DNA of 64,000 nt from contig SZXW01000002.1 of NCBI GenBank assembly GCA_005862285.1, positions 188,849 to 252,848 of the forward strand, in the 5' to 3' direction. Position 1 is the first letter of the stretch. Each line of letters opens with the position of its first letter. Below the pieces are notes generated by a model. That model saw only the letters and a list, made by a program, of their open reading frames with translations, was not told where the DNA came from and ran no database searches. The position numbers and the translations under genes are program-made. Origin of the DNA: Chlorobium sp. (GTDB taxonomy: Bacteria > Bacteroidota > Chlorobiia > Chlorobiales > Chlorobiaceae). Below are positions 4,840-61,393 of this stretch, piece after piece.

Positions 4840-7800
4840 TCACACCTCGATGCCTTCAAGGCGGTCTTCGAGGTCTGAATAGATCTCCTGCAGTTTTTCG
4901 ATCATGTCAGGGTCTGCATTCCACATGCCGCGGCCGCTCGCTTCGAGCATCCTGCCTACTATGTTCTTGAAGGCTTTCGGGTTCACCTTCATGAGCCGCT
5001 CGCGCATTTTCGGGTCCATGGCGTAAGTCTCTGCCGCTTCCTTGTAAACCCAGTCGTCTACGCCTTTTGTGACGGCATCCCAGCCAAGCATGTAAGTGAA
5101 ACGGTTGCTGATTTCTGTTGCGCCGCTGTGCCCCTGTTCCAGCATGGTCTCGAACCATTTCGGATTCAGCAGCTTGCTGCGGAACTCCACCTTGAGCGCT
5201 TTGTCGGCATCGTCAACCTTGACATCAGCCGTAAATGTTTCCACGTAGTTCAGCTTCACGTTGTCACCTTTCGGGTTGCGGCGGCGGGCTGAGAGCTGGA
5301 GTGCGCCCGATGAGGAGAAGTAACGGTCGATATCGGAGATCCCGAACTCGGCAGAATCGACCTGCTGAACGACACGGTCCACCGTACCGAGAAGGCCTTT
5401 CAGAATATCGGTTTGCTGGTCGCCGTAACGGTTGCCGCCGTAGGCGAAGCCGGTACGTTTGATGAACATGTTGTCGAGATCCTCCTCGGACTCCCATGCT
5501 GAATCCTCGACCAGTTCCTCCACCTGGGAACCGTAAGCGCCTGGAGCCTGTGTGAAGAGGCGGGAAGTGGCGCTTTCGAAATCCTTGCCTTCCTTGATGG
5601 CAGCATCGACATGCTTGCGGATGTGGTTCATCTCGTATGGTTCGATTGCCTTCGCTGCGTCCTTGACCATTTTGTCAAGGTGATCGACAAGGACACCGAA
5701 GGTGTCACGGAAGATCGAGCTGATCTGGATAAGCACGTCGATCCTCGGGCGTCCGAGTTTTTCGAGAGGGATGAGCCGGTAATGGCTGATCTTTCCCTGG
5801 GCGTCGTAAGCCGGTTCCGCTCCGACGAGGCTGATGATGACTGCGACGGCTTCACCTTTGCTTTTGATGGTATCGAGGCCCCATAGCACCTGGGCAATGG
5901 TTTCCGGGTATTCGCCTTTGTTTTCTTCGAGATGGCGCTTGATAATGGTGTCGGCGATCTGTTTACCGCGTTTGAAAGCAAGTTCCGAAGGAATTCTCCA
6001 TGGATCGATGGCATGGATGTTGCGGCCGGTCGGCAGAATGCCAGCGCCGTCTCTCACCAGATCTCCACCGGCTCCTGACGGGATGTATTCGCCGTTGAGG
6101 GCACGCAGGAAGTTCTGCATCTCCTGCCGGTTGTCCTGCAGGGCACGTTTCAGCGACAGTCCATCCTGCAGCGCAGCATTGATCGCGTCTGCCATCTCCG
6201 TGGTGGGTTTCGTACCACCAGCAATCTGATTGAAAACGTTTGATGGATTGCTGTTGCCGAAAATAGTGCCTTCAATGAATACCCTGGTATGTTCGTCGAT
6301 CATCTCGCGAGTTTTCATTGCCTGCGGTTCACCTTTGCGGGCGCGGGTTGCAAGAGCGGCGTAATCGCCGAAGGATGTGCTTGCGCCGGTTGCCTGCATG
6401 ATGATCGAGGGCAGCGACTTTTCGTTGCCGCGTACTTTCAGGTATTCAGTGATGGTGGTGACCTGCGTGTCGAGTTTCGGTGTTTCACCGAAGACGTGCA
6501 GAGAGTTGGAGATCAGACGTCCCTCGAGTTCCATGAGGTAGGTGTAGAGGCGGCTGATGTAGTTCATGAAGGACTCGCCCTCGACGCGCGGGCAGTCATC
6601 GGTGAGGTTGAGCTGCTGCGCCTTGTTGATGATGACCTCCTCGGTCTCGATGTCAACTATCTTTTCGAGTCCACGCTCGCGGTAGTCGTTAAGCATCTCC
6701 TTGAACGCCGGAAGCTCCTTGTAGAGGCCTGCGCGGGCGAGCGGAGGGATGTTGTGCGATATCATGGTTGCGTAACCGCGGCGCTTGGCGATGTTGGCCT
6801 CGCTCGGGTTGTTGATCGGGTAGATATAGAAATGCGGGACTTCGCCGAGCAGCGCGTCCGACCAGCAGTCGCCTGTTACGCCGAGTTGAAGGCCCGGCAT
6901 CCATTCGACCGTGCCGTGCATGCCGACATGCACCATGGCGCTGGCATTGAAGACACGGCTGATCCAGCGGTAGAAGCCGATATACTGGTGGTGCGGCGTG
7001 TTCTCCTTGTCGAAAAGCAGGCGCATCGGGTCGCCCTGGATGCCGAGGCGGGGCTGGACGCCGATGAAGATGTTGCCGAGGGTGACACCGCCGATAAAAC
7101 AATTGTCCGGCTTGACAGGAGCGACCTCGCCAGGGAACCCTCCCCAGCGGGCTTCGATGCGTTCGCGCTCGCGCACGGAGGTTATCGAATTGTATGTTTC
7201 GCGGTTGACCGAGAAGCAGTCCGGTTCATGGGCCTGGATCTCGAAATCGGTCGCCCTGTCGAGTATTGCGAGCAGGGCTTCGGGCGATTCCGGGATCTCT
7301 CCGACGTTATAACCTTCAGCACGCAGGGAGAGCAGGATATTGTAGATGCTTTTCGGTACGTCGAGCAGTGCGGCGCTGGCTTTCTTGCCCATACCCGGTG
7401 GATAGTCGTAAACGACGATGGCCAGTTTTTTATCCCTGTTCGGCATTTGACGAAGGTCCGAAAACTTTTTCGCGATGCCGGAAAGCCTTTCGAGGCGGTC
7501 CGGAACGGTCTGCAAGCGTCCATCCTTGATAGCGCCGAGCACGACCGGGCAGACGGCGCCGTCCATTTCGGGAAGTGAATACGTCATGGCCGACTGCAGG
7601 GGCACTACGCCCTGCGATTTCCACGAGTTGAAATCCTGTATGAAAAGTGGTTGCGAAACCACGTAGGGAGCGTTGATCTTGCCGAGGATCTCGTCGCGTG
7701 CCGCGGATGAAGCTCCCGGCGTGGTTGCGCCGGCCGGACCACCAACGAAACCGAACCCCATCATGTTCACCAGCATGTCGATGTTCGCATGCGTGAACCA

Positions 7801-8643
7801 CTCACGCGCTGCGACATGACCTTCCACACCCATCACGAATACCGGCAGGGGGTTCAAGCCCTTTGCCTCGATGGCCCGGATGGTGTTGTCGATATATTCT
7901 TTTTCCTGAAGCAGGTGCTTGCGGAAAAAGAGCATGCCTATATTTCTTTTTTTCGAAGAGTTTTTATCCTGTTTATGCAACCATTTTTCGTAGTGGTGCA
8001 GGTCCTTCTGGTATTCCGGAGCGTCAGGGTGATAGAAGCCCATCGTCGGCACTTCCTGCACTTTTTCAGCTTTTATGCCTACCTCGAAATACTCGGACAT
8101 GATGTAATTGAACATCGAAGCGAGGTTGTCAGCAGTGGGGTGCATCCAGTAGGTATACACCTGCATCCAGTTCTTGAAATCCTTCGCTTTTTTCGGGATC
8201 AGCGGCAGCATGGTGCGCATGATCTTCAAAAGCTTCATGTATCCGTAGAGCGCATCCTCATCGCGGCCTTTCACAAGCATTTTCGCGACTTTCTTCACGA
8301 TATCGGGCATTCCGCTTCCATCCCCGGCAACGACGTAGTTGCCAACTTTTGTCATCTGCATCACTTCCGGCATTGACTCGTAGGCAAAAATAACTTTCAC
8401 CTGAGACTGGTCGAGCTGCTCCTTCATCCAGTCGGCCTGTCCCTTGAACTGGATCAGGGTGGTGAAGACACAGTCCGCATTGTGGATCGCATCGGCGGCT
8501 GCCGGGTTCTGATGCTCCAGGTCCTGATCGGTCCATTGGGTGAGCTCGGCATGAGCGGAGATTTTCTCGGTTACCTCGCGCCAGACCCTCTGGTTGCATT
8601 GCTCCATCCCGACAATAGCGGCAATTCTGATTTTATCGTGCAT
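4840..8643 (-). CDS. bchH: Magnesium chelatase large subunit, BchH family (which of the Chlorobi BchH/BchS/BchT paralogs is not resolved)
   Basis: 1267-aa ORF. The N-terminal region ...VIFAYESMPEVMQMTKVGNY parallels ChlH ...VFPSMPQVMRLNKMGSF. The size and long conserved core fit ChlH/BchH rather than a shadow ORF. Confidence 0.88.
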   Translation of the reverse strand: MHDKIRIAAIVGMEQCNQRVWREVTEKISAHAELTQWTDQDLEHQNPAAADAIHNADCVFTTLIQFKGQADWMKEQLDQSQVKVIFAYESMPEVMQMTKVGNYVVAGDGSGMPDIVKKVAKMLVKGRDEDALYGYMKLLKIMRTMLPLIPKKAKDFKNWMQVYTYWMHPTADNLASMFNYIMSEYFEVGIKAEKVQEVPTMGFYHPDAPEYQKDLHHYEKWLHKQDKNSSKKRNIGMLFFRKHLLQEKEYIDNTIRAIEAKGLNPLPVFVMGVEGHVAAREWFTHANIDMLVNMMGFGFVGGPAGATTPGASSAARDEILGKINAPYVVSQPLFIQDFNSWKSQGVVPLQSAMTYSLPEMDGAVCPVVLGAIKDGRLQTVPDRLERLSGIAKKFSDLRQMPNRDKKLAIVVYDYPPGMGKKASAALLDVPKSIYNILLSLRAEGYNVGEIPESPEALLAILDRATDFEIQAHEPDCFSVNRETYNSITSVRERERIEARWGGFPGEVAPVKPDNCFIGGVTLGNIFIGVQPRLGIQGDPMRLLFDKENTPHHQYIGFYRWISRVFNASAMVHVGMHGTVEWMPGLQLGVTGDCWSDALLGEVPHFYIYPINNPSEANIAKRRGYATMISHNIPPLARAGLYKELPAFKEMLNDYRERGLEKIVDIETEEVIINKAQQLNLTDDCPRVEGESFMNYISRLYTYLMELEGRLISNSLHVFGETPKLDTQVTTITEYLKVRGNEKSLPSIIMQATGASTSFGDYAALATRARKGEPQAMKTREMIDEHTRVFIEGTIFGNSNPSNVFNQIAGGTKPTTEMADAINAALQDGLSLKRALQDNRQEMQNFLRALNGEYIPSGAGGDLVRDGAGILPTGRNIHAIDPWRIPSELAFKRGKQIADTIIKRHLEENKGEYPETIAQVLWGLDTIKSKGEAVAVIISLVGAEPAYDAQGKISHYRLIPLEKLGRPRIDVLIQISSIFRDTFGVLVDHLDKMVKDAAKAIEPYEMNHIRKHVDAAIKEGKDFESATSRLFTQAPGAYGSQVEELVEDSAWESEEDLDNMFIKRTGFAYGGNRYGDQQTDILKGLLGTVDRVVQQVDSAEFGISDIDRYFSSSGALQLSARRRNPKGDNVKLNYVETFTADVKVDDADKALKVEFRSKLLNPKWFETMLEQGHSGATEISNRFTYMLGWDAVTKGVDDWVYKEAAETYAMDPKMRERLMKVNPKAFKNIVGRMLEASGRGMWNADPDMIEKLQEIYSDLEDRLEGIEV

Positions 8644-8792: not shown

Positions 8793-11375
8793 TCAGAAAG
8801 CGAAGTCCACGCCTGCGACATAGCTGCGGCCCGGTGAGCGGAACCACTCGGCTTCATCGTACATCACGTTGCCGACATTCCTGCAAAGAAAAGTCAGAGT
8901 GACTTCTTTTGCTGGATGTATTTTGAGACCGGCATCAAATACGATGAAATCACCAGGATAATTATAGCCGGTTTTGTCGGTATACTGGGCAATATTTTTA
9001 TACTTGCTCATATACCGGCCGTTCACATTCACAGAGATTTTGCTGCTGGGTTTCCATGTCACGTTTGCTGAAGCGGTATGCTCAGGACGGTACTGAAGCC
9101 ATGAAGGATCAGGGTTCTTCTTATTCAGCCCCGCCAGTGCGTCTTCAGAGCTTGGATCATAGGAAAGGTCCTTTGCGTTCATGTAGGTGTATGCAAAGTT
9201 AAGAGCCCACTCATTTGACGGTCTGATATTGAGGTTTGTCTCTATACCCCAGATGCGCGCACGGCTGACATTGTCATATTCGAAATAGGTGACAGGTGAG
9301 CCGGGAAGTCCTACAATATAACCACCATAGCCAAACCATCTTGCCTGGATAAGGTTGTCATAGTAATTCAGGAAGCCTGCGATGTCAAAGGAAACCTTGT
9401 CGCTGAACTGCTTGAACATACCGACTTCCCATGATTGCATGGTTTCCTTGTTGAGGTTCGGGTTCGGGTTTCCATATGCGAAACCCGCATCGGTGACAAA
9501 GCGTTCAAAGATGGTCGGAGCGCGGAAACTCATGCCCCAAGAGGCACGGAAGCTCATGTCGTCCGTTGCCTTGTAGTTCAGCGCCACTCGCGGACTGATA
9601 GCGTCAACGGATGGATGTGCGATATTTGCAGTAGTAGGTGTGTATGTTAATTTCCCAAATGGAATTGTTGATAAATCAGGTGGAGGGCCATAGTTTGGTG
9701 GTAGATATGCTATTTTTGTAAACGATACATGATCGGCATCGATGCCGCTCCAGTCATAGCGAACCGACAGCAGCGAGGTCAATTTGTCCGTTATTTTCAG
9801 TTCATCCTGCAAAAATACCGCTGCGTTTTTTTCCTGTACCGTTCCAAATACATTAATTTTCACTGGTGTCGGTGCAGCTTGTGTCGATTGGAAATTGGTG
9901 ATGTCACCGTCTACGCCGAAAAGGATGCGGTTGTGGTCATTCGCTTTCCAGTCCAGCTTGATACCTGCGCCGTAGCGGTTTGCGTTCGTATCATTGAAAG
10001 AGCCAACAGGCTTCGCGGAAGTACCAGATCCTTGATCACCTGATATAGGGATAAAAACGGGACCGGGGAAAAAAGGGCTGCCTACATATCTTCCTGCACC
10101 ATAATTATACTCGATGCGTGAATCATTGTAAGTATAGAAGACCCTCGTATCGAGGCTCAGTTTGTCGCTCAGAAGGTTGACATAGTTGAGACCTACAAGC
10201 GCATTCTTTCGGGTTAGCGTGTCGTCGAAACTGTTGAGAGTGGAAAGAGCGATATCAAATGCCGTATCGAACATTCTCGCACCGGTCGGAGAGAATTGAT
10301 AGCCATATGCTTGTGTATAGCCGCCACTCGTATAATCGTAATAACTGGTAAGCTGAAGGTACTGCTTCGCATCGATATCGTAACGCAACTTCAGCTTCAC
10401 GTCGTTCATTTCGTTCTGGCTGTTCCGCTTGTAGCCATCGTCATCACTATGAGTATAGAGCAGACTGTAAGTCCATTTCCCACTCTTGTTGCCTATACCG
10501 ACATAGGTGTTCCAGAACATGGGAGTAAAATCTTTCCTGTAGACACTGTGGTCGCTTGAAGGCGGTGCATCGTAAAAACCCAAGCTTGCACCGGCTTTGA
10601 CTTCAAATGTTTCAGGGAGATGGCCGTAAACGTTGACCACACCGCCCATCGCGCCCGAACCGTAGAGCGTTGCCGCGGCGCCTTTCAGTACCTCGATTTT
10701 GTCTGCAGCGTTCATGTTGATGTTCTGCGTGACAATTTCACCGGTTTCAGGGCTGTTGATCGGGAAACCGTCATAGAATGCCTGAACCCTCGTGCCGATA
10801 CCTCCGCCCTGATAGGTGTTGGAACCGCGGATCTGCATGGTAGAAGCCGTGGTGCCGCCAGCACGGGTGATCACGACACCAGGGACGTCTTCAATAGCCT
10901 TGTCGAGCGATTCGTTCGGCTGCTGATGGATTTTTTCCTTTGACACCACGTTGACCGTCACCGGGACTTCGAGCCTGTCCTGCTTGTAAAGGGCGGCACC
11001 GACAACGACTTCAGAAGCCATGATGGTGGTCTGTCCGATAGTGATGTTGAGGGAGGCTGTCTGGCCGGGGCTGACGGTTACGATCTGGCTGGCCGGGGTA
11101 TAGCCGACGATCGAAACGGAGATTTTCTGCTGTTTGGCGGGGACATTCTGCAGGGTGTAGTTCCCGTTCATGTCCGTTGCTGTGCCGAGCGTTGTTCCGG
11201 CTACGGTAACCGAGGCACCGAAGACGCCTTCGCCGTCAGCCTTGTCGGTAATCTTGCCTTTTACCGTACCGGTATCGGCCCCGTAAGAGGGCAGGGGAAC
11301 CAGCATGGTCATAAGACAGAGTGCCGAAAAGACAAAACGGAAGGCGCGGTACAGATGCGCGTGTTTTGCTTTCAT
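8793..11375 (-). CDS. TonB-dependent outer membrane receptor with an N-terminal carboxypeptidase-regulatory-like domain
   Basis: The ORF track extends to 11411, but the likely start is the ATG at 11375 (MKAKHAHLYRAFRFVFSALCLMTMLVPLPSYGADTG, a signal peptide). The CarbopepD_reg-like stretch is GTVKGKITDK..GASVTV..TDMNGNYTLQNVP. The plug motif is VVITRAGGTTASTMQIRG and the C-terminus ends in aromatic ...VAGVDFAF. Confidence 0.85.
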   Translation of the reverse strand: MKAKHAHLYRAFRFVFSALCLMTMLVPLPSYGADTGTVKGKITDKADGEGVFGASVTVAGTTLGTATDMNGNYTLQNVPAKQQKISVSIVGYTPASQIVTVSPGQTASLNITIGQTTIMASEVVVGAALYKQDRLEVPVTVNVVSKEKIHQQPNESLDKAIEDVPGVVITRAGGTTASTMQIRGSNTYQGGGIGTRVQAFYDGFPINSPETGEIVTQNINMNAADKIEVLKGAAATLYGSGAMGGVVNVYGHLPETFEVKAGASLGFYDAPPSSDHSVYRKDFTPMFWNTYVGIGNKSGKWTYSLLYTHSDDDGYKRNSQNEMNDVKLKLRYDIDAKQYLQLTSYYDYTSGGYTQAYGYQFSPTGARMFDTAFDIALSTLNSFDDTLTRKNALVGLNYVNLLSDKLSLDTRVFYTYNDSRIEYNYGAGRYVGSPFFPGPVFIPISGDQGSGTSAKPVGSFNDTNANRYGAGIKLDWKANDHNRILFGVDGDITNFQSTQAAPTPVKINVFGTVQEKNAAVFLQDELKITDKLTSLLSVRYDWSGIDADHVSFTKIAYLPPNYGPPPDLSTIPFGKLTYTPTTANIAHPSVDAISPRVALNYKATDDMSFRASWGMSFRAPTIFERFVTDAGFAYGNPNPNLNKETMQSWEVGMFKQFSDKVSFDIAGFLNYYDNLIQARWFGYGGYIVGLPGSPVTYFEYDNVSRARIWGIETNLNIRPSNEWALNFAYTYMNAKDLSYDPSSEDALAGLNKKNPDPSWLQYRPEHTASANVTWKPSSKISVNVNGRYMSKYKNIAQYTDKTGYNYPGDFIVFDAGLKIHPAKEVTLTFLCRNVGNVMYDEAEWFRSPGRSYVAGVDFAF

Positions 11376-11623
11376 GGTTGTGTGTTGTGTGTGTTTGCAA
11401 TGTAAGAACAAAAAAAAGGTTGAAACCTTGTTCGCTTTCCATGATCATCAACACTATCTGTACGTAACAGTATAAAGAAACCGTGAATTTCATCCGCCCA
11501 TCCGTAGCCATCCCGGTAAATCTATTTAAAAAAATAAAAAGGCGCAACAATAAACGTGAAAAACGAAAATTGCGGGACTGAGATGCGGGATGTGGGTGAA
11601 GGCGATGAGGTTTTGAGGGATTG

Positions 11624-17252: not shown

Positions 17253-18500
17253 ATGCGTATTTTAACGTTTACAGGTAAGGGTGGAGTAGGAAAAACAAGC
17301 GTTTCTGCAGCTACAGCTGTCAGATTGTCTCAGATGGGATATCGTACGCTTGTTTTATCAACAGACCCTGCTCACAGTCTCTCGGATTCTTTTAACCTTC
17401 CTCTCGGTGCAGAACCCACCAAAATCAGGGAAAATCTTCAGGCTATCGAGGTCAATCCTTATGTGGACCTCAAACAGAACTGGCAGTCGGTACAGAAATA
17501 TTACACCAGGATTTTCATGGCCCAGGGAGTATCTGGAATCATGGCAGATGAAATGACTATACTGCCCGGCATGGAAGAGCTTTTTTCACTCCTGAGAATC
17601 AAACGTTACAAGGCATCCGGCTTGTATGATGTTCTTGTTCTCGATACGGCGCCGACCGGCGAAACCCTGAGATTGCTTTCGCTTCCTGATACGCTTTCCT
17701 GGGGCATGAAAGCCGTGAAGAACGTTAATAAATATATTGTCAGACCTCTCAGCAAGCCTCTTTCGAAGATGTCCGACAAAATAGCTAATTTTATCCCACC
17801 TGCGGACGCTATTGATTCTGTCGATCAGGTTTTCGACGAACTTGAAGATATCCGTGAAATTCTCACGGACAATGCCAAATCCACAGTTCGTCTGGTTATG
17901 AACGCCGAGAAGATGTCGATAAAGGAAACCATGCGAGCACTGACGTATCTTAACCTGTACGGGTTCAAAGTTGATATGGTGCTTGTCAACCGTCTGCTTG
18001 ATACAAAGGAAAACAGCGGATATCTGGAACACTGGAAAAGCATCCAGCAGAAATATCTTGGAGAGATAGAAGAGGGATTTTCGCCCCTGCCAGTTAAAAA
18101 GCTCAGGATGTACGAACAGGAAATTGTCGGACTCAAATCACTCGATCAGTTCGCTCACGACATGTACGGTGAAAGCGATCCGTCGGATATGATGTATGAC
18201 GAACCGCCGATCAGGTTTGTACGCAATGGAGATGTCTATGAGGTGCAGATGAAGCTCATGTTTGCCAACCCTGTCGATATCGATGTCTGGGTTACCGGGG
18301 ATGAACTGTTCGTGCAGATAGGAAATCAGCGCAAGATCATTACATTGCCGATAAGCCTGACCGGCCTTGAACCGGGCGATGCCGTTTTCAAGGATAAATG
18401 GCTGCACATTCCGTTCGATCTCGACAAGACCGAGCAAAGCCGCCTGCAGAAGGTGCAGAAGGAGTCACACGAATCAAGGGAACAGAAAGTCTATCAATAG
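17253..18500 (+). CDS. Get3/ArsA-family P-loop ATPase with a C-terminal alpha-crystallin (HSP20)-like domain (paralog 1)
   Basis: 415-aa ORF with the deviant Walker [19 protein letters not shown] and DTAPTGETLRLL. The C-terminal DVYEVQMKL...DIDVWVTGDELFVQIGNQRKIITLPISL...FKDKWLHIPF reads as an ACD-like beta-sandwich. The protein contains no cysteine. Confidence 0.85.
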   Translation: MRILTFTGKGGVGKTSVSAATAVRLSQMGYRTLVLSTDPAHSLSDSFNLPLGAEPTKIRENLQAIEVNPYVDLKQNWQSVQKYYTRIFMAQGVSGIMADEMTILPGMEELFSLLRIKRYKASGLYDVLVLDTAPTGETLRLLSLPDTLSWGMKAVKNVNKYIVRPLSKPLSKMSDKIANFIPPADAIDSVDQVFDELEDIREILTDNAKSTVRLVMNAEKMSIKETMRALTYLNLYGFKVDMVLVNRLLDTKENSGYLEHWKSIQQKYLGEIEEGFSPLPVKKLRMYEQEIVGLKSLDQFAHDMYGESDPSDMMYDEPPIRFVRNGDVYEVQMKLMFANPVDIDVWVTGDELFVQIGNQRKIITLPISLTGLEPGDAVFKDKWLHIPFDLDKTEQSRLQKVQKESHESREQKVYQ

Positions 18501-18635
18501 ACTGTGTCATTACTCTGAAGAAGAGTACTTGATTTGATTGTTTTTTATGTTTAACTTTTTGTAATTAATATTCTTGGCTTTACAATCAACAACAGGGGCT
18601 TCGTTTATGCAAGCCTCATTTCCAGGGAGAATAAT

Positions 18636-19055
18636 ATGTCGGAATCGTACCAGAATCTGCGCAAGGATTTCAAGGAACTTGAGTTGACAGACCGCCTTAC
18701 GTTTCTTGCTGAAAGCGTTCTCTTGACCGGGCAAAGTGCTGTCGTCAGTGGTTTGAATCTTGCCGGCAGTGTTTTTGATACCGTAACCGGAACTGTAGGG
18801 GCTCTTGTCGATGCATCCGGAGTCGGAAGGATTTTTGGAAGCAGCACCGGTGTTGTCGGCGAGACCATCGATCGGGTAGCCATTACGGTCAAGGATGCCT
18901 CGAGAACAGCTAACGAACTCTATAACAATGCTGTCGAGACTGTGGAAAATGCCGCAGGCAACATGGCGACTGCTGTCGGTGATGCAGGACAGTCTGCATC
19001 AGAAGTAGTCAAGAATTTTGCCGGGTCTTTCCAGAAAAGTCCGGTGAAAAAATAA
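18636..19055 (+). CDS. csmC: Chlorosome envelope protein, CsmC/CsmD family
   Basis: 139-aa Ala/Gly/Val-rich ORF immediately upstream of csmA, matching the csmCA arrangement known from Chlorobaculum tepidum. The assignment rests on position and composition. Confidence 0.72.
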
Positions 19056-19195
19056 GTGAGCGTTCCTTTTTTAAACAAACTGTTTTCAAAGGGCAATCTT
19101 TTTCTTGTGTTTTTTTATTTATTGCTGTAAATTAACGTAAGGTAACTATTCTGAATTATTAAAACTTTCCAATAATTAAATACCAAGGAGGAATT

Positions 19196-19438
19196 ATGAG
19201 TGGTGGTGGCGTTTTTACCGATATCCTGGCAGCAGCCGGCCGCATCTTTGAGGTAATGGTTGAAGGTCACTGGGAGACCGTCGGTATGCTGTTTGATTCT
19301 TTAGGCAAAGGCACCATGAGAATCAACCGCAATGCTTATGGCAGCATGGGCGGCGGCGGAAGCCTTCGTGGCGGATCACCAGAAGTAACAGGATATGCTG
19401 TTCCTTCTAAAGAGGTTGCTTCAAAATTTGCAAAATAA
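19196..19438 (+). CDS. csmA: Chlorosome baseplate protein CsmA (BChl a-binding), precursor form
   Basis: The 80-aa [53 protein letters not shown]... is near-identical to remembered CsmA sequences and includes His25. A strong SD (aaggagg) lies 5 nt upstream of the ATG. Confidence 0.95.
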
Positions 19439-19463
19439 GCATCTCAGGATTCCATTTATTCAA

Positions 19464-19502
19464 GGCAGTGAAAAGCTTGTGTTTCACTGCCTTTTTTTTT
19501 CC
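19464..19502 (+). terminator. Rho-independent terminator after csmA
   Basis: The 10-bp perfect stem ggcagtgaaa / tttcactgcc is followed by a run of 11 T. Confidence 0.85.
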
Positions 19503-19708
19503 CGTATAGCCAGCCTTCAGTAACATCCTTCTTGTCCGGTTATCTTGAACACAGCACTCGGCGAATGTATTTCTCAGACTTTCTGATCGGTTACCGATCT
19601 GTAGAAAGAGTGCTTGCAGGCTGATAAGCAATTTCTGTTTCTTCTAAAATTTTAATAGATTTCATTTCAATTTGCCAGTAAGAAGTGTTAAGTGAAAAGC
19701 AATAGCTA

Positions 19709-21544
19709 ATGGCTAATTTATCTTTGTACATATCAGGACAGACTGAAGAGAATGATGTAGCTGAATTTTTCCAGAAAAACCTCATGAGCGCCGGTGAAAA
19801 TCCGATCGCTTTTTTTGACGGGGTTTTTTATGAGTCACATCAGGAACGTGTTGGCAATATTGCTTTTCAGGACTATCTGATCTATTCCGACAAGGCGGTT
19901 TATCTTTGGGCAAGAGGGACGACAAAGGATTATCTCGATCGCTTCGAACTTGGTTCGGTATCCGTTAACAGCCGTAATAAAGATTACGATTTTGCAACCG
20001 TAAATCTGAAGGTTCGCCGTGAAGGCAAGGAACCTGTCTATGTTATTTTTGATATGGTCGAGTTGCGGGAAGCTGATCTGATTGTCAGACTCCATACTGT
20101 TATTGAATCGGTCATTGAACAATATATGGGCCTGAATTATCGGGCAACCCTGCCTGACAATGTGGCCGATATCGTCCTTGAGGAAGCGAGGAGCGTCTGT
20201 ATTCCCCAGTCGATAACACTTCGCCTCGATGCTCCGAATTCTTCACAGCAGCAGGCCAGTATCGGTTATGGTCAGGACCTGCTCGAGCAATACAAGGCTT
20301 CCATCGGTTACGGAGGTAACGAAAGACAGCCGCAACCGCAACAACAGTCGTACCAGAGACCGCAACCTCAGCCTCAACAGCAGTCCGGTTATAATCCGGT
20401 TCCTGCGGCACCCGGCGGTGCACAGTATCCGGAGGGATTTTCTCCAACCGATGTTTTCAAAAAAATTGAAGGCATGCTTCCCGGGGCTGATCCAGGCGCT
20501 CTGAAAAAAGTTGCCGACTCGATCAAGGATATGCTTGGAGAAGTTCCCATGAAGCTCAGGGATCAGTTCGTGAGCGATATGCAGCATGTTCCGGGTATGC
20601 TTTCTGCCCTGAATGAACTTCTTACAAATATTTCCGACAATCCCCAGGCAGAGCGTTTTGTCATGAATATTGTCAAAACAGCCGTCAGGAATGACGGGAT
20701 GATCGGTTCGGTAGGAAAGCTTATCAAGCTCTCTTCCAATTTTGGTTCATCAGGCAAGAAAAAACCAGCTCCTCGTTCTTCGCAGAGACCGGCCTCATCC
20801 GCTTCAGCAGCGTCTGTGCCTCAGAAAGAGAGAGATGACTCCTTCGATGATTTTGACAGTCCTGTAAGGAAAAAGAAAATACAAATAAAAAACGATGCGT
20901 CAGTTCCCGGCAGGGATTTTTTCAGCGACGATCTGATGGCGGATCTGCCTGACAGCGGTTCATTTGCACCGGAAAAGAGCAGACCTTTAGTTGAGGATAT
21001 TGACGATTCAGCAGTCCCGAAACGAAAGAAAATTTCGGTCAAGGCTCCTGAAGCGGATATGTCGCCTCTTATAAAAGACATGATGAGCATGGATGATCCA
21101 GATTCCGGGATGTCCGCTCCTGAACCTGCCGTGATGCCCATGGAAAACGGGCAGACGCAGGTTGCCACAAGAAAAATCAGAATTGTTCCTGAAGTTCCGC
21201 CGGCAGAACTCCCTGAAATCGAAATTTCAGAAGAGGAAATCCTGCAGGCAATGGTTTCCGATATTGATGTTCCGGAATTGCAGGCATTTGAATTTGAAGA
21301 TACGAAGGTTGATTTCCCTGAAGTGGAAGCTTCTGACATGGAAGAAACGGAACCAATGGTAACAGATACACAAAAAGCTGAAACACTAAAGACAGAAGTC
21401 AGACCTTCTGAAAGCGTTGCTGCGGAAAAACCGGAAGTGCAAATTCAAACTGCACCGGTTATGCAGACAAAAAAATCGGATTTTACCGGTAACAGTTCTC
21501 AAAGGAAGAAGTTCAACGCGCCGGGAAAACACGGAAGGCGGTGA
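19709..21544 (+). CDS. Hypothetical 611-aa protein: N-terminal globular domain, PQ-rich linker, helical middle and a long acidic disordered tail
   Basis: The long ORF has consistent coding character and lies between csmA and the second Get3/ArsA-like gene on the same strand. I recognise no family. Confidence 0.7.
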   Translation: MANLSLYISGQTEENDVAEFFQKNLMSAGENPIAFFDGVFYESHQERVGNIAFQDYLIYSDKAVYLWARGTTKDYLDRFELGSVSVNSRNKDYDFATVNLKVRREGKEPVYVIFDMVELREADLIVRLHTVIESVIEQYMGLNYRATLPDNVADIVLEEARSVCIPQSITLRLDAPNSSQQQASIGYGQDLLEQYKASIGYGGNERQPQPQQQSYQRPQPQPQQQSGYNPVPAAPGGAQYPEGFSPTDVFKKIEGMLPGADPGALKKVADSIKDMLGEVPMKLRDQFVSDMQHVPGMLSALNELLTNISDNPQAERFVMNIVKTAVRNDGMIGSVGKLIKLSSNFGSSGKKKPAPRSSQRPASSASAASVPQKERDDSFDDFDSPVRKKKIQIKNDASVPGRDFFSDDLMADLPDSGSFAPEKSRPLVEDIDDSAVPKRKKISVKAPEADMSPLIKDMMSMDDPDSGMSAPEPAVMPMENGQTQVATRKIRIVPEVPPAELPEIEISEEEILQAMVSDIDVPELQAFEFEDTKVDFPEVEASDMEETEPMVTDTQKAETLKTEVRPSESVAAEKPEVQIQTAPVMQTKKSDFTGNSSQRKKFNAPGKHGRR

Positions 21545-21625
21545 TGGCTGTATGCAGTTACCTGCAGACAAGTCAATCGGGCGTTCAGTCAAGATCAAAT
21601 CTACTCAATAGCTTTTATCAAAAAC

Positions 21626-22780
21626 ATGAGAATTATTCTTTACCTGGGTAAAGGGGGTGTCGGTAAAACCACCGTTTCAGCCTCGACCGCAACATCAATT
21701 GCACGGAGAGGCCAGAGGGTGCTGATCATGAGCACGGATGTGGCTCACAGTCTTGCCGATGCATTCAGCGTTGAGCTTTCATCTACCCCTCTCGAGGTGG
21801 AAAAAAACCTCTTCGCCATGGAGGTCAATGTCCTTGCTGAAATCAGGGAAAACTGGAATGAGCTGTATTCCTATTTCTCTTCGATTCTCATGCATGACGG
21901 CGCAAATGAAATTGTGGCCGAGGAGCTTGCCATCATGCCGGGTATGGAAGAGATGATCAGTCTACGCTATATCTGGAAGGCAGCGAAATCGGGTGATTAT
22001 GATGTTGTCATTGTCGATGCAGCACCGACCGGAGAAACCATGCGCCTGCTCGGCATGCCTGAATCGTATGGCTGGTATTCTGACAAGATTGGCGGCTGGC
22101 ATTCGAAAGCCATTGGTTTTGCCGCTCCGCTCCTGACCAAGTTCATGCCGAAAAAGAATATTTTCAAGCTCATGCCTGAAGTGAACGAGCATATGAAAGA
22201 GCTTCATGCCATGTTGCAGGACAAGAGCATAACCACATTCAGGGTTGTCCTGAACCCCGAGAACATGGTTATCAAGGAAGCTCTCAGGGTACAGACCTAT
22301 CTGAACCTCTTCGGTTACAAGCTCGATGCTGCTATAGTCAACAAGGTCCTGCCGCCGAATTCGACTGACAGTTACCTGCAGAGCCTTATCGATACCCAGG
22401 CAAAATACCTCAGGATCATCGAGAACTGCTTTTATCCGGTTCCTATTTTCCGCGCGCAGCTTTCTACCGAGGAAATTATCAATACTGACAAGCTGGACAA
22501 CCTCAGCAAGCAGATATTCGGTGATAGAAATCCCGCTGAGGTGCTTTTCATCAACGACAAAACACAGGTGCTTGCCAAAGTCGACGGTAAATATGTTTTA
22601 AGCCTTTATCTGCCGAATGTTGAGGTAAAGAAACTGAACGTCAATATAAAAGGCGACGAACTGCTGGTCGATATCAACAATTTCCGCAAGAGCATTATTC
22701 TACCCAATGTGCTTATTGGCCGTAAAACAGAGGGCGCGGATTTTTCAGAGGGTAATCTCAGTATCACATTCTCAAGCTGA
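21626..22780 (+). CDS. Get3/ArsA-family P-loop ATPase with a C-terminal alpha-crystallin (HSP20)-like domain (paralog 2, divergent)
   Basis: 384-aa ORF with [18 protein letters not shown] and [12 protein letters not shown]. The C-terminal [40 protein letters not shown]...GNLSITF is ACD-like. It has a single Cys. Confidence 0.85.
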
Positions 22781-23817: not shown

Positions 23818-23851
23818 ATCGGACCGATTGGTCTGATCAGTTCAATCGGTC
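23818..23851. repeat. GACCGAT-type short repeat/hairpin overlapping the stop of the YopX-like gene
   Basis: In catcggaccgattggtctgatcagttcaatcggtc, the arms accgattg and caatcggt form an 8-bp stem. Confidence 0.5.
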
Positions 23852-24185
23852 AAATTTTCACGTTCTTGTCGAATTTGCTGCCGATTACTTCACAATCGGG
23901 AATGCAGTACCATAAAATGACATCTGAATTTCCGTCATGAAGGGCTTTGTAGCTGCCGTGTTCATAGACAACTTCGACTACAGTGTCGTTCCAGTTCAGC
24001 AGATCGCCTTCATAAATTTCCGTCTGGTGCCTGTCATGCAGACCGGTGAACTGAAGCCATTCGGATTTTTGACGGAACGAGAGGAAATCAACGTCTTTCG
24101 TATTTACCGTAGAAATTTTCCAGACATCCCTGTTCGTGGCAATCTCCTTAAACAGTGCCTTGAATTTGATATTGTTGATCTGCAT
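23850..24185 (-). CDS. YopX-like (phage-type) small protein, orphan
   Basis: 111-aa ORF. QFTGLHDRHQTEIYEGDLL...VVEVVY...CEVIGSKFDKN matches the remembered YopX pattern (YTGLKDKNGKEIYEGDIV ... IGNIHEN). No other phage genes are nearby. Confidence 0.5.
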   Translation of the reverse strand: MQINNIKFKALFKEIATNRDVWKISTVNTKDVDFLSFRQKSEWLQFTGLHDRHQTEIYEGDLLNWNDTVVEVVYEHGSYKALHDGNSDVILWYCIPDCEVIGSKFDKNVKI

Positions 24186-39022: not shown

Positions 39023-39808
39023 TCAGGCATGGCTTACGGCGTGAAGGTACTCGACAAGTGCGCGGTTGAAGGCATCGGGCTGTTCCATGTTCGAGATGTG
39101 TCCGGCTCCGCTCAGCAGGATCAGCCTTGAACCGCGGACACGGACACTGATATCTTCTGCGGTCTCAGGTGTCGTCATCCTGTCTTCAGCACCGCATATG
39201 ACCAGTACCGGACAGGTGATCGAGCCGAGAAGCGGCGTGGAATCTGACCTTGTCATGATTGCACGCATTGCCGCATTGATCACCTTCGCGCGCTGCCTTC
39301 GTATGATATCCGATACCTCTGCAGGCAGTTCGGGACTCGATTCATATGCTTCAGCGGAAAAATAGTTCGGTACCATTCGCCGGATGGCTTCTTCCGCTCC
39401 CTCAGATTCGACGGCTTTCATGAACTCACCGCGCTGTTCAAGCGCTGCGGGAGCATCAGCTTCAGCCCTGGTATCGCAGAGAACGAGGGAGACGATTTTT
39501 TCAGGGTAGTTACGATAGAACTCGAATGCCTGGTATCCGCCCATGGAAAGTCCCGTAATCGTAGCTTTCACGATGCCGAGAGAGTCCATGAGGGCAGCCA
39601 GCTCATGAGCATAATCCGTGAAATTCCATTCAGCTTTTTCATCAGAACCATCAATACCGAAGGCATTCGGGGCGATGACCCTGTAACCGGCTTTACCGAG
39701 TGCATAGAGCTGGGGTTTCCACATTTCTGCGGAGAGAGGAAAAGCATGAAGCAGAATAAGCGTATGGGCCCCCGGTTTGTCAGGTCCGGCCTGCAGGTAT
39801 GTCAGCAT
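39023..39808 (-). CDS. Alpha/beta-fold hydrolase
   Basis: 261-aa ORF with the nucleophile elbow GLSMGG, the oxyanion region LLHAFP and a C-terminal GAGHISN. Confidence 0.8.
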   Translation of the reverse strand: MLTYLQAGPDKPGAHTLILLHAFPLSAEMWKPQLYALGKAGYRVIAPNAFGIDGSDEKAEWNFTDYAHELAALMDSLGIVKATITGLSMGGYQAFEFYRNYPEKIVSLVLCDTRAEADAPAALEQRGEFMKAVESEGAEEAIRRMVPNYFSAEAYESSPELPAEVSDIIRRQRAKVINAAMRAIMTRSDSTPLLGSITCPVLVICGAEDRMTTPETAEDISVRVRGSRLILLSGAGHISNMEQPDAFNRALVEYLHAVSHA

Positions 39809-46252: not shown

Positions 46253-46298
46253 GGTACAAGATTGGTTTTCGGATTTAAAGAAAATGGTGCGGTTTTAA

Positions 46299-47681: not shown

Positions 47682-47820
47682 GTTGTTTCGACCGGTGTTG
47701 AACGCTCGGTTTTACAGATTGCCTGATCGTTTTATCCTTATCTGATGTTTCGTTGATTGCCTGATTGCAGGAACGGCACAATGTTGTGAAATACCGTACG
47801 ATGCATCAAGATCGAATGCG

Positions 47821-49059
47821 CTAATCAGAATAGTTGTTATTCAGCACTTTATTGTTCTCTTTTTCAAGCAGACTCTGTTTGTGGTTGTTAAGATCAAAAG
47901 GTATATGGAGCCATTTGCCTTTAAACACTGCATCGCCTGGTTCCAGGCCGGTCAGGCTTATCGGCAGTGTAATGATCTTGCGCTGATTGCCTATCTGTAC
48001 GAACAGCTCGTCGCCTGTAACCCATATATCGATATCTACCGGGTTGGCAAACATCAGTTTCATTTGAACTTCATAAATATCACCCTGCCGGACGAATTTG
48101 ATGGGCGGTTCGTCATACATCATATCGGATGGATCGGTATCGCCGTAAATATCATGTGCGAACCGTTCCAAAGCTTTCAGTCCGACGATTTCCTTCTCAT
48201 ACATTCTCAGTTTTGCAACCGGCAGCGGCGCAAAGCCTTCTTCTATTTCACCAAGGTATTTCTGCTGGATCGATTTCCATTTTTCAAGGTAACCGCTGTT
48301 TTCCTTTGTATCGAGAAGGCGGTTGACGAGCACCATATCGACCTGGAAGCCGTACAGGTTCAGGTAGGTAAGAGCCCGCATGGTTTCCTTTATCGACATT
48401 TTCTCGGCATTCATGACCAGCCGCACGGTAGATTTTTTCGTATCCGTAAGAATTTCCCGGATGCCTTCCAGCTCATCGAAAACGTGGTCGACAGAATCGA
48501 TCGCTTCTTCCGGTGGAATATAGAAGGCAATTTTGTCGGACATTTTCGACAGGGGTTTGCTGAGAGGCCTGACAATATATTTTGTGACGTTTTTAACGGC
48601 CTTCATGCCCCATGACAAGGTGTCCGGAAGTGAGAGCAATCTGAGCGTTTCACCTGTTGGCGCGGTATCGAGCACCAGCGCATCATAACTCCCGGCAGCT
48701 TTGTAGCGTTTGATCCTCAGCAGGGAAAAAAGCTCTTCCATGCCCGGCAGGATGGTCATTTCATCAGCTACTACGCCGGAAACGCCCTGTGCCATGAAAA
48801 TCCTCGTGTAGTACTTCTGAACAGACTGCCAGTTGTTTTTAAGGTCAACGTAAGGGTTTACCTCGATTGCATGGAGATTTTCCCTGATCCTGGTTGGTTC
48901 CGCCCCCAGAGGCAGATTGTATGAATCCGAGAGACTATGGGCAGGATCGGTTGAAAGAACGAGCGTACGATATCCCATTTCCGACAAGCGGACAGCTGTA
49001 GCAGCAGATACGCTGGTTTTGCCTACTCCGCCTTTACCTGTGAATGTTAAAATACGCAT
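47821..49059 (-). CDS. Get3/ArsA-family P-loop ATPase with a C-terminal alpha-crystallin-like domain (paralog 3, close paralog of 17253-18500)
   Basis: 412-aa ORF with [30 protein letters not shown] and the ACD-like C-terminus DIYEVQMKL...DIDIWVTGDELFVQIGNQRKIITLPISL. It has no cysteine and is about 90% identical to paralog 1 by eye. Confidence 0.85.
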   Translation of the reverse strand: MRILTFTGKGGVGKTSVSAATAVRLSEMGYRTLVLSTDPAHSLSDSYNLPLGAEPTRIRENLHAIEVNPYVDLKNNWQSVQKYYTRIFMAQGVSGVVADEMTILPGMEELFSLLRIKRYKAAGSYDALVLDTAPTGETLRLLSLPDTLSWGMKAVKNVTKYIVRPLSKPLSKMSDKIAFYIPPEEAIDSVDHVFDELEGIREILTDTKKSTVRLVMNAEKMSIKETMRALTYLNLYGFQVDMVLVNRLLDTKENSGYLEKWKSIQQKYLGEIEEGFAPLPVAKLRMYEKEIVGLKALERFAHDIYGDTDPSDMMYDEPPIKFVRQGDIYEVQMKLMFANPVDIDIWVTGDELFVQIGNQRKIITLPISLTGLEPGDAVFKGKWLHIPFDLNNHKQSLLEKENNKVLNNNYSD

Positions 49060-49287
49060 GACGCCGACTTTGATATTTTAAGGCAATAAGGAAAAATCTA
49101 TGAACTGAAAAGATAACATTTTGAGCGTAAGTAGCAATGGACAGGAAAATATACAGGTTGAAACTATATTTGCAAGATGTGAAATTGCGGATAAGAAGGC
49201 GATACCTGTCATGAACGGATAGAGCCGGTCAGATTAATTTGCCCGGCTTGTATCTGAGCCTGTTGTACCAGACAGGGAAAATGTACG

Positions 49288-49410
49288 TCACTGCTGCTTT
49301 TTCGAGGATGATTTTCCGATGAATTTATTCAGTAGCATGACGATGAAGATGCCCGAGACAAAGAAAATCACTGGTGCATAAATGGTCGTATATTTGGCAA
49401 ATTCCGGCAT
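49288..49410 (-). CDS. Candidate 40-aa single-TM small protein (unsupported beyond the ORF and hydrophobicity)
   Basis: My translation is MPEFAKYTTIYAPVIFFVSGIFIVMLLNKFIGKSSSKKQQ: one hydrophobic helix and a Lys/Ser-rich tail. It is on the same strand as the flanking radical SAM and Get3-like genes. It is below the ORF-track cutoff and has no clear SD. Confidence 0.25.
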   Translation of the reverse strand: MPEFAKYTTIYAPVIFFVSGIFIVMLLNKFIGKSSSKKQQ

Positions 49411-49489
49411 TGATGGTTTGTGTTTGATGGTTGACGAGTAATTGAAATATTTGGTTATTTGTAATGGCCCTTTTTCGAGCCTGTAAAGT

Positions 49490-50872
49490 TTACAGATTGT
49501 GCTCCTTCCTGAAGGTGCCGAGCTGTTCGCGTATATTTCTGCGGAACGCTATGCTGGTGATGAGGTTGAGCATTTTGTAGGGATTCTTTCTAACCCTGTT
49601 GGCAATGTTCTTCAGTGAATAAGCCTTGTAATAACTTTTCATGAACTTGTACTGGAACTCTATCGGATCGTATTTTTCTGAACGGATGACCAGATTTGTA
49701 GCATTGTATCTGTCCCAGTTCTCGTCGGTAATGAGTCCTTTCTCCTTGTACTCCCAGTACATCGATGTGCCTGGATAGGGCGTGATAATCTGGAATATAG
49801 GCATGAATACATTATTTTTGCTGACAAAGTCGACCAGGTTGTCCATGTCTTCGAAGGTATCGAGCGCTGGGTTGAAGAGGAAGTTCCCCTGGACGTTCAG
49901 ACCTGCCTGACGGCACTCCTCGATGAGGCGTGAAAACTTCTCGGCCGAGTTCACATGCCCTTTGTTGTAGGCTTCAAGCGTGCGCTGGTTGATGGACTCG
50001 AAGCCCACGAGCACCATGAGGCAGCCGGAATCGACCAGTTTCCTGACCGTATCCTTGTCTTCGAGGAAATTGCTGCTGAAAAAGACGCTGTAGTTTATGT
50101 TGCACTCCTTTATGAGGTCGAGCGTCTCCCACAGCCGTTTTTTGCTAACGCCGAGATTTTCGTCGCACAGCATGAACCATGGTTTCGAGGATTTTCCGTG
50201 CGGCTTGAAGAATGCTTTTTTCGCGGCTTCGATCTGCTTCTTAAGATCATCCGGCTTCTGGGCTCGGTAGAGTTTGCCGGTGAAATTCGGTGTGACGCAG
50301 AAGGAACAGTCGAACGGGCATCCTCTGGTGACATAGATGGGAATGGACTTGGTGCCGTCGACCTTTTCGCGTTTCGATGCTTTGGCGATTCTTGCGTAAT
50401 CGATAGGGACGATTTCCGTGACTGGAGGGAAATCCTTCGAGTTGTAAAGCGGCTTGAGCCGGTTGTTCGCTGCATCCTCGAGCACGGTCTGCCAGAGGTT
50501 CTCGGCTTCGCCGCAGACGATGCAGTCGGCGTGGGGCCTTGCTTCTTCGGTATTGAAGGAGACGTGCAGTCCGCCGAGGATGACCTTCTTTCCTTTTTTG
50601 CGGAAGGCATCGGCGATTTCGTAACCTCTTTTAGCATCGATGGTGCGGGAAGTAATACCAACAAAGTCGTAATCGCCGTCGTAATTGATGGTATCGCCGA
50701 AATGCTCATCGGCGATTTCGATGTGGTGCTGTTCAGGAGTGAGGCTGACCAGTACTCCTATCGCCATGTTGAACAGCGGCTTCTGGTTTGTTTTCGAATC
50801 CTTTTTTCCCTTCGGAGCGATGAAGAGCAGTTTGAGAGGCCTTGTTGCGCCTGGTGATCCGTGGTTACTCAT
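49490..50872 (-). CDS. B12-binding radical SAM protein, BchQ/BchR-like, copy B
   Basis: The 460-aa ORF has the same motifs as copy A (CPFDCSFC) and is collinear with it over the full length. Confidence 0.82.
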
Positions 50873-57583: not shown

Positions 57584-57584
57584 T

Positions 57585-60505: not shown

Positions 60506-60515
60506 GAGGTTCTCC

Positions 60516-61376: not shown

Positions 61377-61393
61377 CGCGAATGGTTCGCGGT

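Follow-up and report, generated by a model that had tools for sequence, protein, structure and literature searches.

Get3-type ATPases and the chlorosome

Get3d, a Get3-type protein, was defined by Barlow et al. (2023) with the proteins of green sulfur and green non-sulfur bacteria already counted in, and with up to five copies in Chlorobium chlorochromatii (PMC10248533). It captures tail-anchored proteins in vitro; its partners were given as unknown, the role of its alpha-crystallin domain as "unclear" and a lipid role as possible, and chlorosomes went unmentioned (PMC10248533). We analysed a stretch of 64,000 nucleotides from Chlorobium sp. (contig SZXW01000002.1, positions 188,849 to 252,848 of the forward strand; hereafter the window), in which two ATPases of this kind (ATP1 and ATP2) enclose the chlorosome genes csmC and csmA and the gene of an uncharacterised 611-aa protein (P611). 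What we show here is which genes are present and how their domains are arranged, the intactness of the catalytic motifs, synteny across phyla, the homology of the candidate partner proteins and the enrichment of a motif. The association of one ATPase clade (clade A) and of the P611 family with csmA is, at the sequence level, well supported. The further reading, that we see here the Chlorobi form of a conserved cassette for the chlorosome, in which Get3d-type ATPases and P611 act on the delivery of Csm proteins, strikes us as evenly balanced between right and wrong.

Castillo and Saier (2010) described ArsA homologs, together with an hsp20 gene, in gas-vesicle gene clusters, and their list includes the proteins of Chlorobium, Chloroherpeton and Chloroflexus that we examine, chlorosomes never being mentioned (PMC2963123). 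A passage of the Chlorobaculum tepidum genome paper records six ArsA homologs, and in the Chloroflexus genome paper the neighbours of csmA are depicted as uncharacterised or non-photosynthetic. Outside the subscription literature, our search returned no paper joining the chlorosome or csmA with ArsA, Get3 or an ATPase. The literature on chlorosome assembly offers budding and aggregation models only, and CsmA is regarded as the sole chlorosome protein common to all chlorosome-bearing phyla. Two open questions meet in this locus: how proteins and pigments reach the monolayer-bound chlorosome, and what the client, the partner and the crystallin role of Get3d are, in a family conserved from green bacteria to plant chloroplasts. 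For both fields the cassette supplies about four definite candidate genes and, if the reading were true, the few chlorosome genes known to be shared across phyla would be joined by two protein families. Chlorobaculum tepidum is genetically tractable.

Organisation of the csmCA interval

Five genes and a terminator follow one another on the same strand in the order ATP1, csmC, csmA, terminator, P611, ATP2. The original prediction had given this order, and all five open reading frames (ORFs) were recovered on that strand at its coordinates; the strong terminator that it placed after csmA was likewise located. The features of the interval are as follows (AF2, AlphaFold2; BChl, bacteriochlorophyll).

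17253..18500, + strand: ATP1, clade-A Get3d-type ATPase, 415 aa (Pfam, NCBIfam, AF2, Foldseek)
Parts of ATP1: ATPase domain, aa 1-305; alpha-crystallin-like domain, aa 327-388 (nt 18231-18416); low-confidence C-terminal helix
18636..19055, + strand: csmC, chlorosome envelope protein C (PF11098, 204 bits against a cutoff of 26.3)
19196..19438, + strand: csmA, precursor of the baseplate BChl a-binding protein, 80 aa (PF02043, 113 bits against a cutoff of 25)
19462..19503, + strand: intrinsic terminator closing the csmCA unit (12-bp stem at 19462-19493, 8-nt loop, T7 run)
19709..21544, + strand: P611, uncharacterised candidate partner, 611 aa, containing QPQPQQQSYQRPQPQPQQQ
Parts of P611: putative N-terminal PH-like domain, aa 1-145; PQ-rich linker; conserved helical motif, aa ~255-345; disordered acidic/basic tail
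20867..20890, + strand: first RKKIxIK-type motif in the P611 tail, VRKKKIQIKN (motif count)
21020..21043, + strand: second such motif, PKRKKISVKA (motif count)
21164..21187, + strand: third such motif, VATRKIRIVP (motif count)
21626..22780, + strand: ATP2, clade-B Get3d-type ATPase, 384 aa, starting 81 bp past P611 (Pfam, NCBIfam)
22583-22771: alpha-crystallin-like domain of ATP2, aa 320-382 (PF17886)

The window as a whole shares 99% identity with a metagenome-assembled genome of Chlorobiaceae. The CsmA encoded in it is 96-100% identical to the CsmA of Chlorobiaceae, and a promoter scan of the interval gave no signal beyond shuffled expectation.

Domain architecture and catalytic motifs of the ATPases

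ATP1 and ATP2 are single-half Get3/ArsA-fold ATPases (415 and 384 aa, 36% identical to each other), each with a C-terminal alpha-crystallin-like domain. The ArsA_ATPase family (PF02374) matches the full ATPase domain of both (E 1e-116 in ATP1 and 2e-84 in ATP2), and ArsA_HSP20 (PF17886) is found in ATP1 at E 1e-19 (70 bits) and in ATP2 at E 2e-19 (69.5 bits; cutoff 22.5). The latter, fused to the ATPase, is the sole crystallin-type match, the HSP20 family (PF00011) being absent from these proteins at E <= 0.01. The AF2 model of ATP1 (predicted local distance difference test score, pLDDT, 82; predicted template modelling score, pTM, 0.81) contains a crystallin-like region of seven strands at aa 320-389 (pLDDT ~90), and Foldseek aligned the model with the Nostoc and Arabidopsis Get3d structures (8egk and 8elf) over ~400 columns, the crystallin domain included. 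The original prediction had read the C-terminal ~70 aa as resembling a small heat-shock protein (sHSP): the domain itself was recovered by PF17886, AF2 and Foldseek, at a shorter length of ~62 aa. The Get3 clade that it had mentioned as carrying an alpha-crystallin domain does exist and is Get3d (PMC10248533), and the check that it had proposed, by hidden Markov model (HMM) and structure prediction, confirmed both the crystallin-like domain and a Get3d-like architecture.

Both proteins pass the cutoff of 135 bits for the TRC40/GET3/ArsA subfamily (TIGR00345), with 281 bits for ATP1 and 239 for ATP2. The top structural match of the ATPase part of ATP1 was the archaeal Get3 3zq6 (E 1e-24, target-normalised TM-score 0.73-0.79), which also led the sequence search (E 7e-52, ahead of NosGet3d at 1e-25 and AtGet3d at 7e-17), and the NosGet3d equivalog model NF050088 (cutoff 325) was missed by both (149.4 and 142.7 bits). 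On these scores, ATP1 and ATP2 are Get3d in the broad sense and not orthologs of the crystallised Get3d proteins. The deviant Walker A P-loop (GKGGxGKT), switch I and switch II are intact in both, and the motifs STDVAHSL (ATP2), DTAPTGET (ATP1) and DAAPTGET (ATP2) were found as first quoted. With their motifs intact, ATP1 and ATP2 are probably catalytically competent. Predicted helices at aa 69-122 and 147-204, which would make up a putative client-binding region and are in part of low pLDDT, are 46-50% hydrophobic and contain 4.5-7.6% Met in the ATPases of the window.

Arsenite efflux by an ArsA pump is the function implied by the annotation "arsenite-transporting ATPase" and by the name of PF02374 ("anion-transporting ATPase"). 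It is a reading to which we give practically no credence. ATP1 and a third ATPase of the window (ATP3, described below) contain no cysteine and ATP2 contains one (C268), hence no CXXC zinc motif; the count of none in ATP1 and one in ATP2 had been claimed before. The proteins are of half size, ArsA being built of two fused homologous halves (~580 aa), their scores against the ArsA model TIGR04291 (119 bits for ATP1 and 92 for ATP2) lie far under its cutoff of 650, and Pfam or NCBIfam scans of ~50 ORFs of the window turned up no arsB, ACR3, arsC, arsD or arsR. The original prediction had already dismissed an arsenic role and had found no arsB, arsC, arsR or arsD here, justifiably on both counts; single-half length, 0-1 Cys, the sub-cutoff TIGR04291 scores and the missing ars neighbours exclude arsenic resistance.

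Pairwise identities and a neighbour-joining tree divide these ATPases and their relatives into four clades (A-D). Clade A holds ATP1, ATP3, deep-branching Chlorobi orthologs and the Chloroflexales gene upstream of csmA, with a cross-phylum identity of 49-54% against 32-39% to the other clades. Clade B is made up of ATP2, its Chlorobi orthologs and 45-48% identical relatives in Candidatus Chlorohelix and other loci, and clade C of 407-434-aa proteins of Chloroflexales, Chlorohelix and Prosthecochloris, the latter clade being "cluster 11" of Castillo and Saier, which includes a Chloracidobacterium protein (PMC2963123). All catalytic motifs are kept in clades A-C, whereas clade D, a form found only in Chloroflexales, has its P-loop (FTAHHQLQQSAA) and switch motifs destroyed.

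Conservation of the cassette in Chlorobi

The complete order ATP1-csmC-csmA-P611-ATP2 is present in 55 of the 80 genome loci retrieved with ATP1 (Chlorobiaceae); the remainder either run into a contig end behind csmC or csmA (9) or represent the ATP3-type paralog (16). Chance is far from explaining such a five-gene order. The cassette recurs in Prosthecochloris, bordered there too by holA, ssb and a PyrK-like gene at one end and by folK, folB, nadC and tig at the other; three metagenome contigs show the same order, and so do two deep-branching Chlorobi metagenome lineages in which CsmA is strongly divergent. Identity between the deep-branching lineages and the window is 70% for ATP1, 65% for ATP2 and 33% for P611; within Chlorobiaceae, ATP2 at its cassette position is 85-99% conserved. 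The ATPase-csmCA-ATPase order, whose conservation the original prediction had wished to see compared, is thus kept in Chlorobiaceae, Prosthecochloris and two deep-branching lineages.

In the deep-branching Chlorobi, a 57-69-aa ORF with no Pfam match lies between csmC and csmA (L083 9568-9774, L085 9661-9834, L086 7881-8090), and none was seen at this place in the window.

Since the flanking genes are also syntenic in Chlorobi, conservation within Chlorobi alone is little proof. The ATPases might instead be general bacterial Get3-like chaperones, which target tail-anchored proteins to the cytoplasmic membrane or act as stress holdases, their adjacency to csmA being inherited gene order. In favour of this reading, the whole neighbourhood of holA, ssb, folK, folB, nadC and tig is syntenic in Chlorobi, so that conservation there is partly a matter of phylogenetic inertia, and the terminator that parts csmCA from P611-ATP2 fits them as well.

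The cassette in a second phylum

A single-sequence search for CsmA homologs found Chlorobiaceae and Prosthecochloris only, and a CsmA profile that included Chloroflexus CsmA (a sequence 99% identical to a database entry) was needed to reach Chloroflexales. No CsmA of Chloracidobacterium was retrieved, and the cross-phylum comparison covers Chlorobi and Chloroflexales. Five Chloroflexales lineages were recovered, namely Chloroflexus, a metagenome-assembled genome of Oscillochloridaceae and three metagenome lineages (four loci), and in all five a clade-A gene encoding ArsA_ATPase plus ArsA_HSP20 lies 70-130 bp upstream of csmA. Downstream of csmA are genes for two P611-family proteins (with no Pfam domain), a clade-C ATPase and a degenerate clade-D ATPase, followed by hydrolase-like genes and then a bchU-like methyltransferase gene. 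The synteny check in a second phylum, which the original prediction had called for, thus gave ATPase-csmA-(two P611 homologs)-ATPase-ATPase.

The window and the Chloroflexus locus share only the cassette genes, bar a weak alpha/beta-hydrolase match at window 39473-39799. This cross-phylum association would be hard to explain without shared function or joint transfer. It also tells against general chaperones kept in place by inherited order, for a clade-A ATPase, csmA, a P611-family gene and a further ATPase stay together where Chlorobi and Chloroflexales have no other neighbours in common. Nine further cases, in which a CsmA match and a clade-C ATPase match agree in the length of their longest contig, suggest this linkage as well, as soft evidence. 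GI numbers (PMC2963123) point to the same gene spacing in Chlorobium tepidum, Chloroherpeton thalassium and Chloroflexus aurantiacus J-10-fl.

Several details of the individual loci may be recorded here. A 1.2-kb metagenome contig (L161) carries the 3' part of a clade-A ATPase gene followed by a CsmA-like ORF that is 37% identical to Chloroflexus CsmA. In this divergent ORF (L161 924-1181) the conserved GHW, which we take to hold the BChl a-binding histidine, reads GWW. One Chloroflexales cassette (L176 7342-7869) contains two tandem csmA genes (81 and 79 aa, both PF02043). In Chloroflexus, three alpha/beta-hydrolase-like proteins and three Pfam-less proteins, one of the latter with a sub-threshold DUF4386 match, are encoded between the cassette and the bchU-like gene (L081 15241-19820); judged by position, these are candidates for further chlorosome-related functions. 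The clade-D proteins, of 360-375 aa, are encoded right after the clade-C ATPase and retain the ArsA fold and the crystallin-like domain. Their sequences make a pseudo-ATPase partner likely, possibly as one half of a heterodimer. Their genes are:

L081, 14123-15226: clade-D ATPase gene
L089, 14347-15456: clade-D ATPase gene
L087, 14379-15506: clade-D ATPase gene
L176, 11626-12708: clade-D ATPase gene

The P611 family

P611 has no Pfam, NCBIfam or PDB sequence match. Its first ~100 residues are homologous to the N-termini of both Chloroflexales proteins encoded after csmA (BLASTP E 8e-14 and 8e-7), and an HMM of the N-domain built from Chlorobi only, run against 9553 ORFs, found only P611 homologs and both Chloroflexales proteins (E ~1e-13 and 7e-6). 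A central helical motif (NELLTNISDNPQAERF, aa ~255-345) is weakly but specifically common to P611 and the 363-aa Chloroflexales type. The single-sequence AF2 model of P611, which is of low confidence (pLDDT 54), contains a helix, 6-7 strands and a C-terminal helix, and PH-like folds were enriched among the weak Foldseek matches of the N-domain (best E 5e-3). The bPH_3 family (PF14470) gave no match in P611 and 14.7-16.4 bits in four Chloroflexales homologs, under its cutoff of 23. As modelled, the N-domain looks PH-like, an assignment that is not established.

The pattern [RK][RK][ILVF]x[ILV] occurs 131 times in 64 members of the P611 family against 12.1 occurrences expected by shuffling, a 10.8-fold enrichment. 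Up to seven basic-I-x-I/V motifs are found per protein, with RKKIQIK, RKKISVK and RKIRIV in P611 and RRIAVR in Chloroflexales. The IXI/V anchor of sHSPs binds the groove of the alpha-crystallin domain, and IbpA-type bacterial sHSPs end in RRIEI. By analogy, the RKKIxIK motifs resemble IXI anchors and may dock on the crystallin domains of the ATPases.

P611 combines a small folded head with a tail that is long, charged and disordered and bears multivalent short motifs, a build often met in organelle adaptors, and the ATPases of the window share a superclass with MinD/ParA and give weak ParA/MinD matches in Pfam and NCBIfam. P611 and these SIMIBI-class ATPases could on that account be imagined to space or tether chlorosomes along the membrane in the manner of McdA/McdB, the ParA-type system that positions carboxysomes. 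We consider such a positioning role very improbable, because the fold and the top matches are those of Get3/TRC40 with its client-binding helical insert and no ParA-type features are present.

A second linkage, to bacteriochlorophyll c genes

A third Get3d-type ATPase in the window, ATP3, had been overlooked at the first reading. It is flanked by two BchQ/BchR-like radical SAM genes, with bchU close by:

45233-46252, - strand: bchU (TIGR02716 BchU equivalog, 485 bits against a cutoff of 276)
46299-47681, - strand: BchQ/BchR-like B12-radical-SAM gene beside ATP3 (family similarity and context; no equivalog model)
47821..49059, - strand: ATP3, second clade-A paralog, 412 aa, 90% identical to ATP1
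49490..50872, - strand: second BchQ/BchR-like radical SAM gene, on the far side of ATP3 (88% identical to 46299-47681)

The order ATP3, BchQ/R-like radical SAM gene, bchU is kept in the 15 other Chlorobiaceae loci with enough contig. The two radical SAM copies of the window represent a local duplication around ATP3 (45233-50872, - strand), and other Chlorobiaceae carry one. BchU and the BchQ/BchR enzymes modify only BChl c/d/e, the chlorosome pigment. By gene context, the adjacency of ATP3 to BChl c genes is a second, independent linkage of these ATPases to chlorosome genes, and a point against general chaperones.

The same linkage also introduces another candidate cargo. The ATPases could carry lipophilic small molecules (BChl c and its late intermediates, carotenoids, quinones or glycolipids) and not proteins, the closed hydrophobic chamber of Get3d shuttling them from membrane-bound enzymes to the inside of the chlorosome. 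What makes such a pigment or lipid carrier the main rival is the linkage to bchU and BchQ/R-like genes, along with the lipid-like density in Get3d. ATP3 is kept beside bchU and the BChl c C-8/C-12 methyltransferase-like genes, the Chloroflexus cassette runs on into alpha/beta-hydrolase genes and a bchU-like methyltransferase, and an ATPase pair of Candidatus Chlorohelix adjoins BchF-family (hydratase) and PucC-family genes. AtGet3d co-purified with ~750-Da lipid-like molecules in its chamber, and the authors leave a lipid role open, but they judged a dedicated lipid site unlikely since the head-group contacts are not conserved (PMC10248533). Moreover, the most invariant cross-phylum neighbour of clade A is csmA, a protein gene and not a pigment enzyme, and elsewhere in the Get3 family the cargo is a protein helix. 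On balance, carriage of small molecules seems to us unlikely.

Spread of the ATPase clades

An exhaustive search of 1.84 billion protein cluster representatives returned 729 proteins at E <= 1e-30, of which the 107 best full-length representatives were placed in the tree. Clade A gained one of the 107 (P0217). P0217 was considered as a third clade-A phylum and rejected, the contig neighbours of its relatives being at least 90% identical to Chlorobium/Prosthecochloris proteins. Because these relatives sit on Chlorobium/Prosthecochloris-like contigs, clade A looks restricted, within the samples examined, to chlorosome-bearing lineages, which again speaks against a general chaperone. The other 73 metagenome loci come from soil and sediment and share only 35-46% identity with any reference, except for the L161 fragment (56-59%). 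The question raised by the original prediction, whether presence of the ATPases tracks chlorosomes, was thus answered in part: it appears to do so for the clade of ATP1 in these samples, and not for that of ATP2, which has 45-48% identical relatives among non-photosynthetic genes, nor for clade C, whose relatives are found there too.

Clade-B (~382 aa) and clade-C (415-428 aa) genes form tight tandem pairs in four loci:

L090, 8825-11248: clade-B plus clade-C pair
L091, 8747-11263: clade-B plus clade-C pair
L093, 8808-11260: clade-B plus clade-C pair
L094, 8714-11287: clade-B plus clade-C pair

The pair that adjoins the BchF- and PucC-family genes is that of Candidatus Chlorohelix. Matches to clade C of ~420 aa had been taken as Chloracidobacterium candidates and were rejected, as they proved to be such B+C tandem pairs.

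A possible route for Csm delivery

Csm proteins are small and hydrophobic, and their destination would be a lipid monolayer without a translocon. The CsmA precursor of only 80 aa is, we propose, too short for efficient co-translational targeting. As the most likely function of the cassette we infer that CsmA and other small hydrophobic Csm proteins are held after translation and then delivered, P611 serving as adaptor or receptor. ATP1, the clade-A ATPase, would as a dimer take the hydrophobic helix of newly made CsmA, or of other Csm proteins, into its helical client-binding domain. The PH-like head of P611 would mark the chlorosome or membrane site of assembly, and its RKKIxIK repeats would, like IXI anchors, dock on the alpha-crystallin domains of the ATPases. 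ATP hydrolysis would then free the client into the growing baseplate or envelope, and ATP2 (clade B) would serve as second ATPase of the system. What we infer here is which proteins are the clients, that the motifs dock on the crystallin domain, where P611 is localised and which way delivery runs. A more specific version appears rather doubtful to us: P611 would be the missing partner of Get3d-type ATPases, its PH-like head marking the place of chlorosome assembly and its IXI/V array recruiting several ATPase dimers by way of their crystallin domains, with CsmA as client of a GET-like monolayer-insertion pathway that moved between phyla with csmA as a unit.

A number of observations weigh against a cassette for Csm delivery. 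The hydrophobic helix of CsmA is N-terminal and charge-bearing, so it is no classical tail anchor. The PH-like assignment of P611 is sub-threshold, the strict motif is missing in 9 of 56 Chlorobi P611 homologs, and to our knowledge the family has never been reported among purified chlorosome proteins. The csmCA pair is transcribed as a unit apart, ending at a terminator of its own, so that co-regulation with P611-ATP2 is at most putative. Three B+C tandem pairs lie among envelope and housekeeping, non-photosynthetic genes, the clade-C paralog of Prosthecochloris and the third clade-A paralog of Chlorobium and Prosthecochloris sit among housekeeping genes, and the wider family occurs in non-phototrophs (Bacillus, Aquifex, soil, sediment). 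The housekeeping contexts of clade B/C pairs and of some clade-A and clade-C paralogs, together with family members in Firmicutes, Aquificae, soil and sediment, are also what general chaperones with inherited gene order would predict, especially for the clade of ATP2. Set against the cross-phylum association, the restriction of clade A and the link to BChl c genes, we regard a general chaperone role as quite unlikely for the system as a whole.

Other genes of the window

Between folB and nadC, the window has a 111-aa ORF (23850-24185, - strand) with no counterpart at that place in Prosthecochloris (L175) or in the deep-branching Chlorobi loci; it may be a small insertion. Further features are:

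4840-8643, - strand: CobN/Mg-chelatase large subunit (BchH-family), 1267 aa, beside a TonB-dependent receptor gene at 8793-11411, - strand
56954-58244, + strand: BglII-type restriction endonuclease gene overlapping an MT-A70 methyltransferase gene, a small restriction-modification module
58477-61763, - strand: genes for a NiFe-hydrogenase large-subunit-like, a small-subunit-like (Oxidored_q6) and an FAD/NAD/Fe-S reductase subunit

By its gene content, the last cluster resembles a sulfhydrogenase-type soluble hydrogenase.

Comparison with known systems

The ATPases share with ArsA the fold and the Pfam family PF02374, and differ from it in their half length, the absence of metalloid-binding cysteines and of an ars operon, and scores far under the model cutoffs. 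As in gas-vesicle clusters, a Get3/ArsA ATPase is encoded beside structural proteins that are small and highly hydrophobic and belong to an organelle not built of a bilayer; here the organelle is a different one, and so are the neighbours. The basic-I-x-I/V repeats of P611, encoded beside crystallin-bearing ATPases, would be the counterpart of the IXI/V anchors that bind the beta4/beta8 groove of sHSPs. Unlike in sHSPs, motif and domain are on separate proteins, with up to seven motifs per chain, and the crystallin domain of Get3d is without the usual oligomerisation features (PMC10248533).

Archaeal and eukaryotic Get3/TRC40 provide the top sequence and structure matches (3zq6, 3ug6 and yeast Get3), and the ATPases pass TIGR00345; the post-translational logic proposed here for short hydrophobic clients is also that of Get3/TRC40. 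They differ in lacking the CXXC zinc site, in the added crystallin domain and in the proposed target, a monolayer organelle and not a bilayer. We know of no Get4/5 homologs in bacteria. Homologs of the Get1/2 and WRB/CAML receptors are likewise not known there (PMC10248533).

With Get3d, finally, the ATPases have in common the Get3 fold, the deviant Walker A motif, a C-terminal alpha-crystallin domain, the absence of CXXC and an occurrence largely in photosynthetic lineages. Whereas the active site of AtGet3d and NosGet3d is incomplete, switch I/II and related motifs are intact in ATP1 and ATP2; ATP1 is closer in sequence to archaeal Get3, the NF050088 cutoff is not reached, and there are several specialised paralogs per genome. 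What further sets these ATPases apart from any Get3d described so far is that their genomic linkage with csmA, with BChl c genes and with the gene of a candidate partner is conserved.

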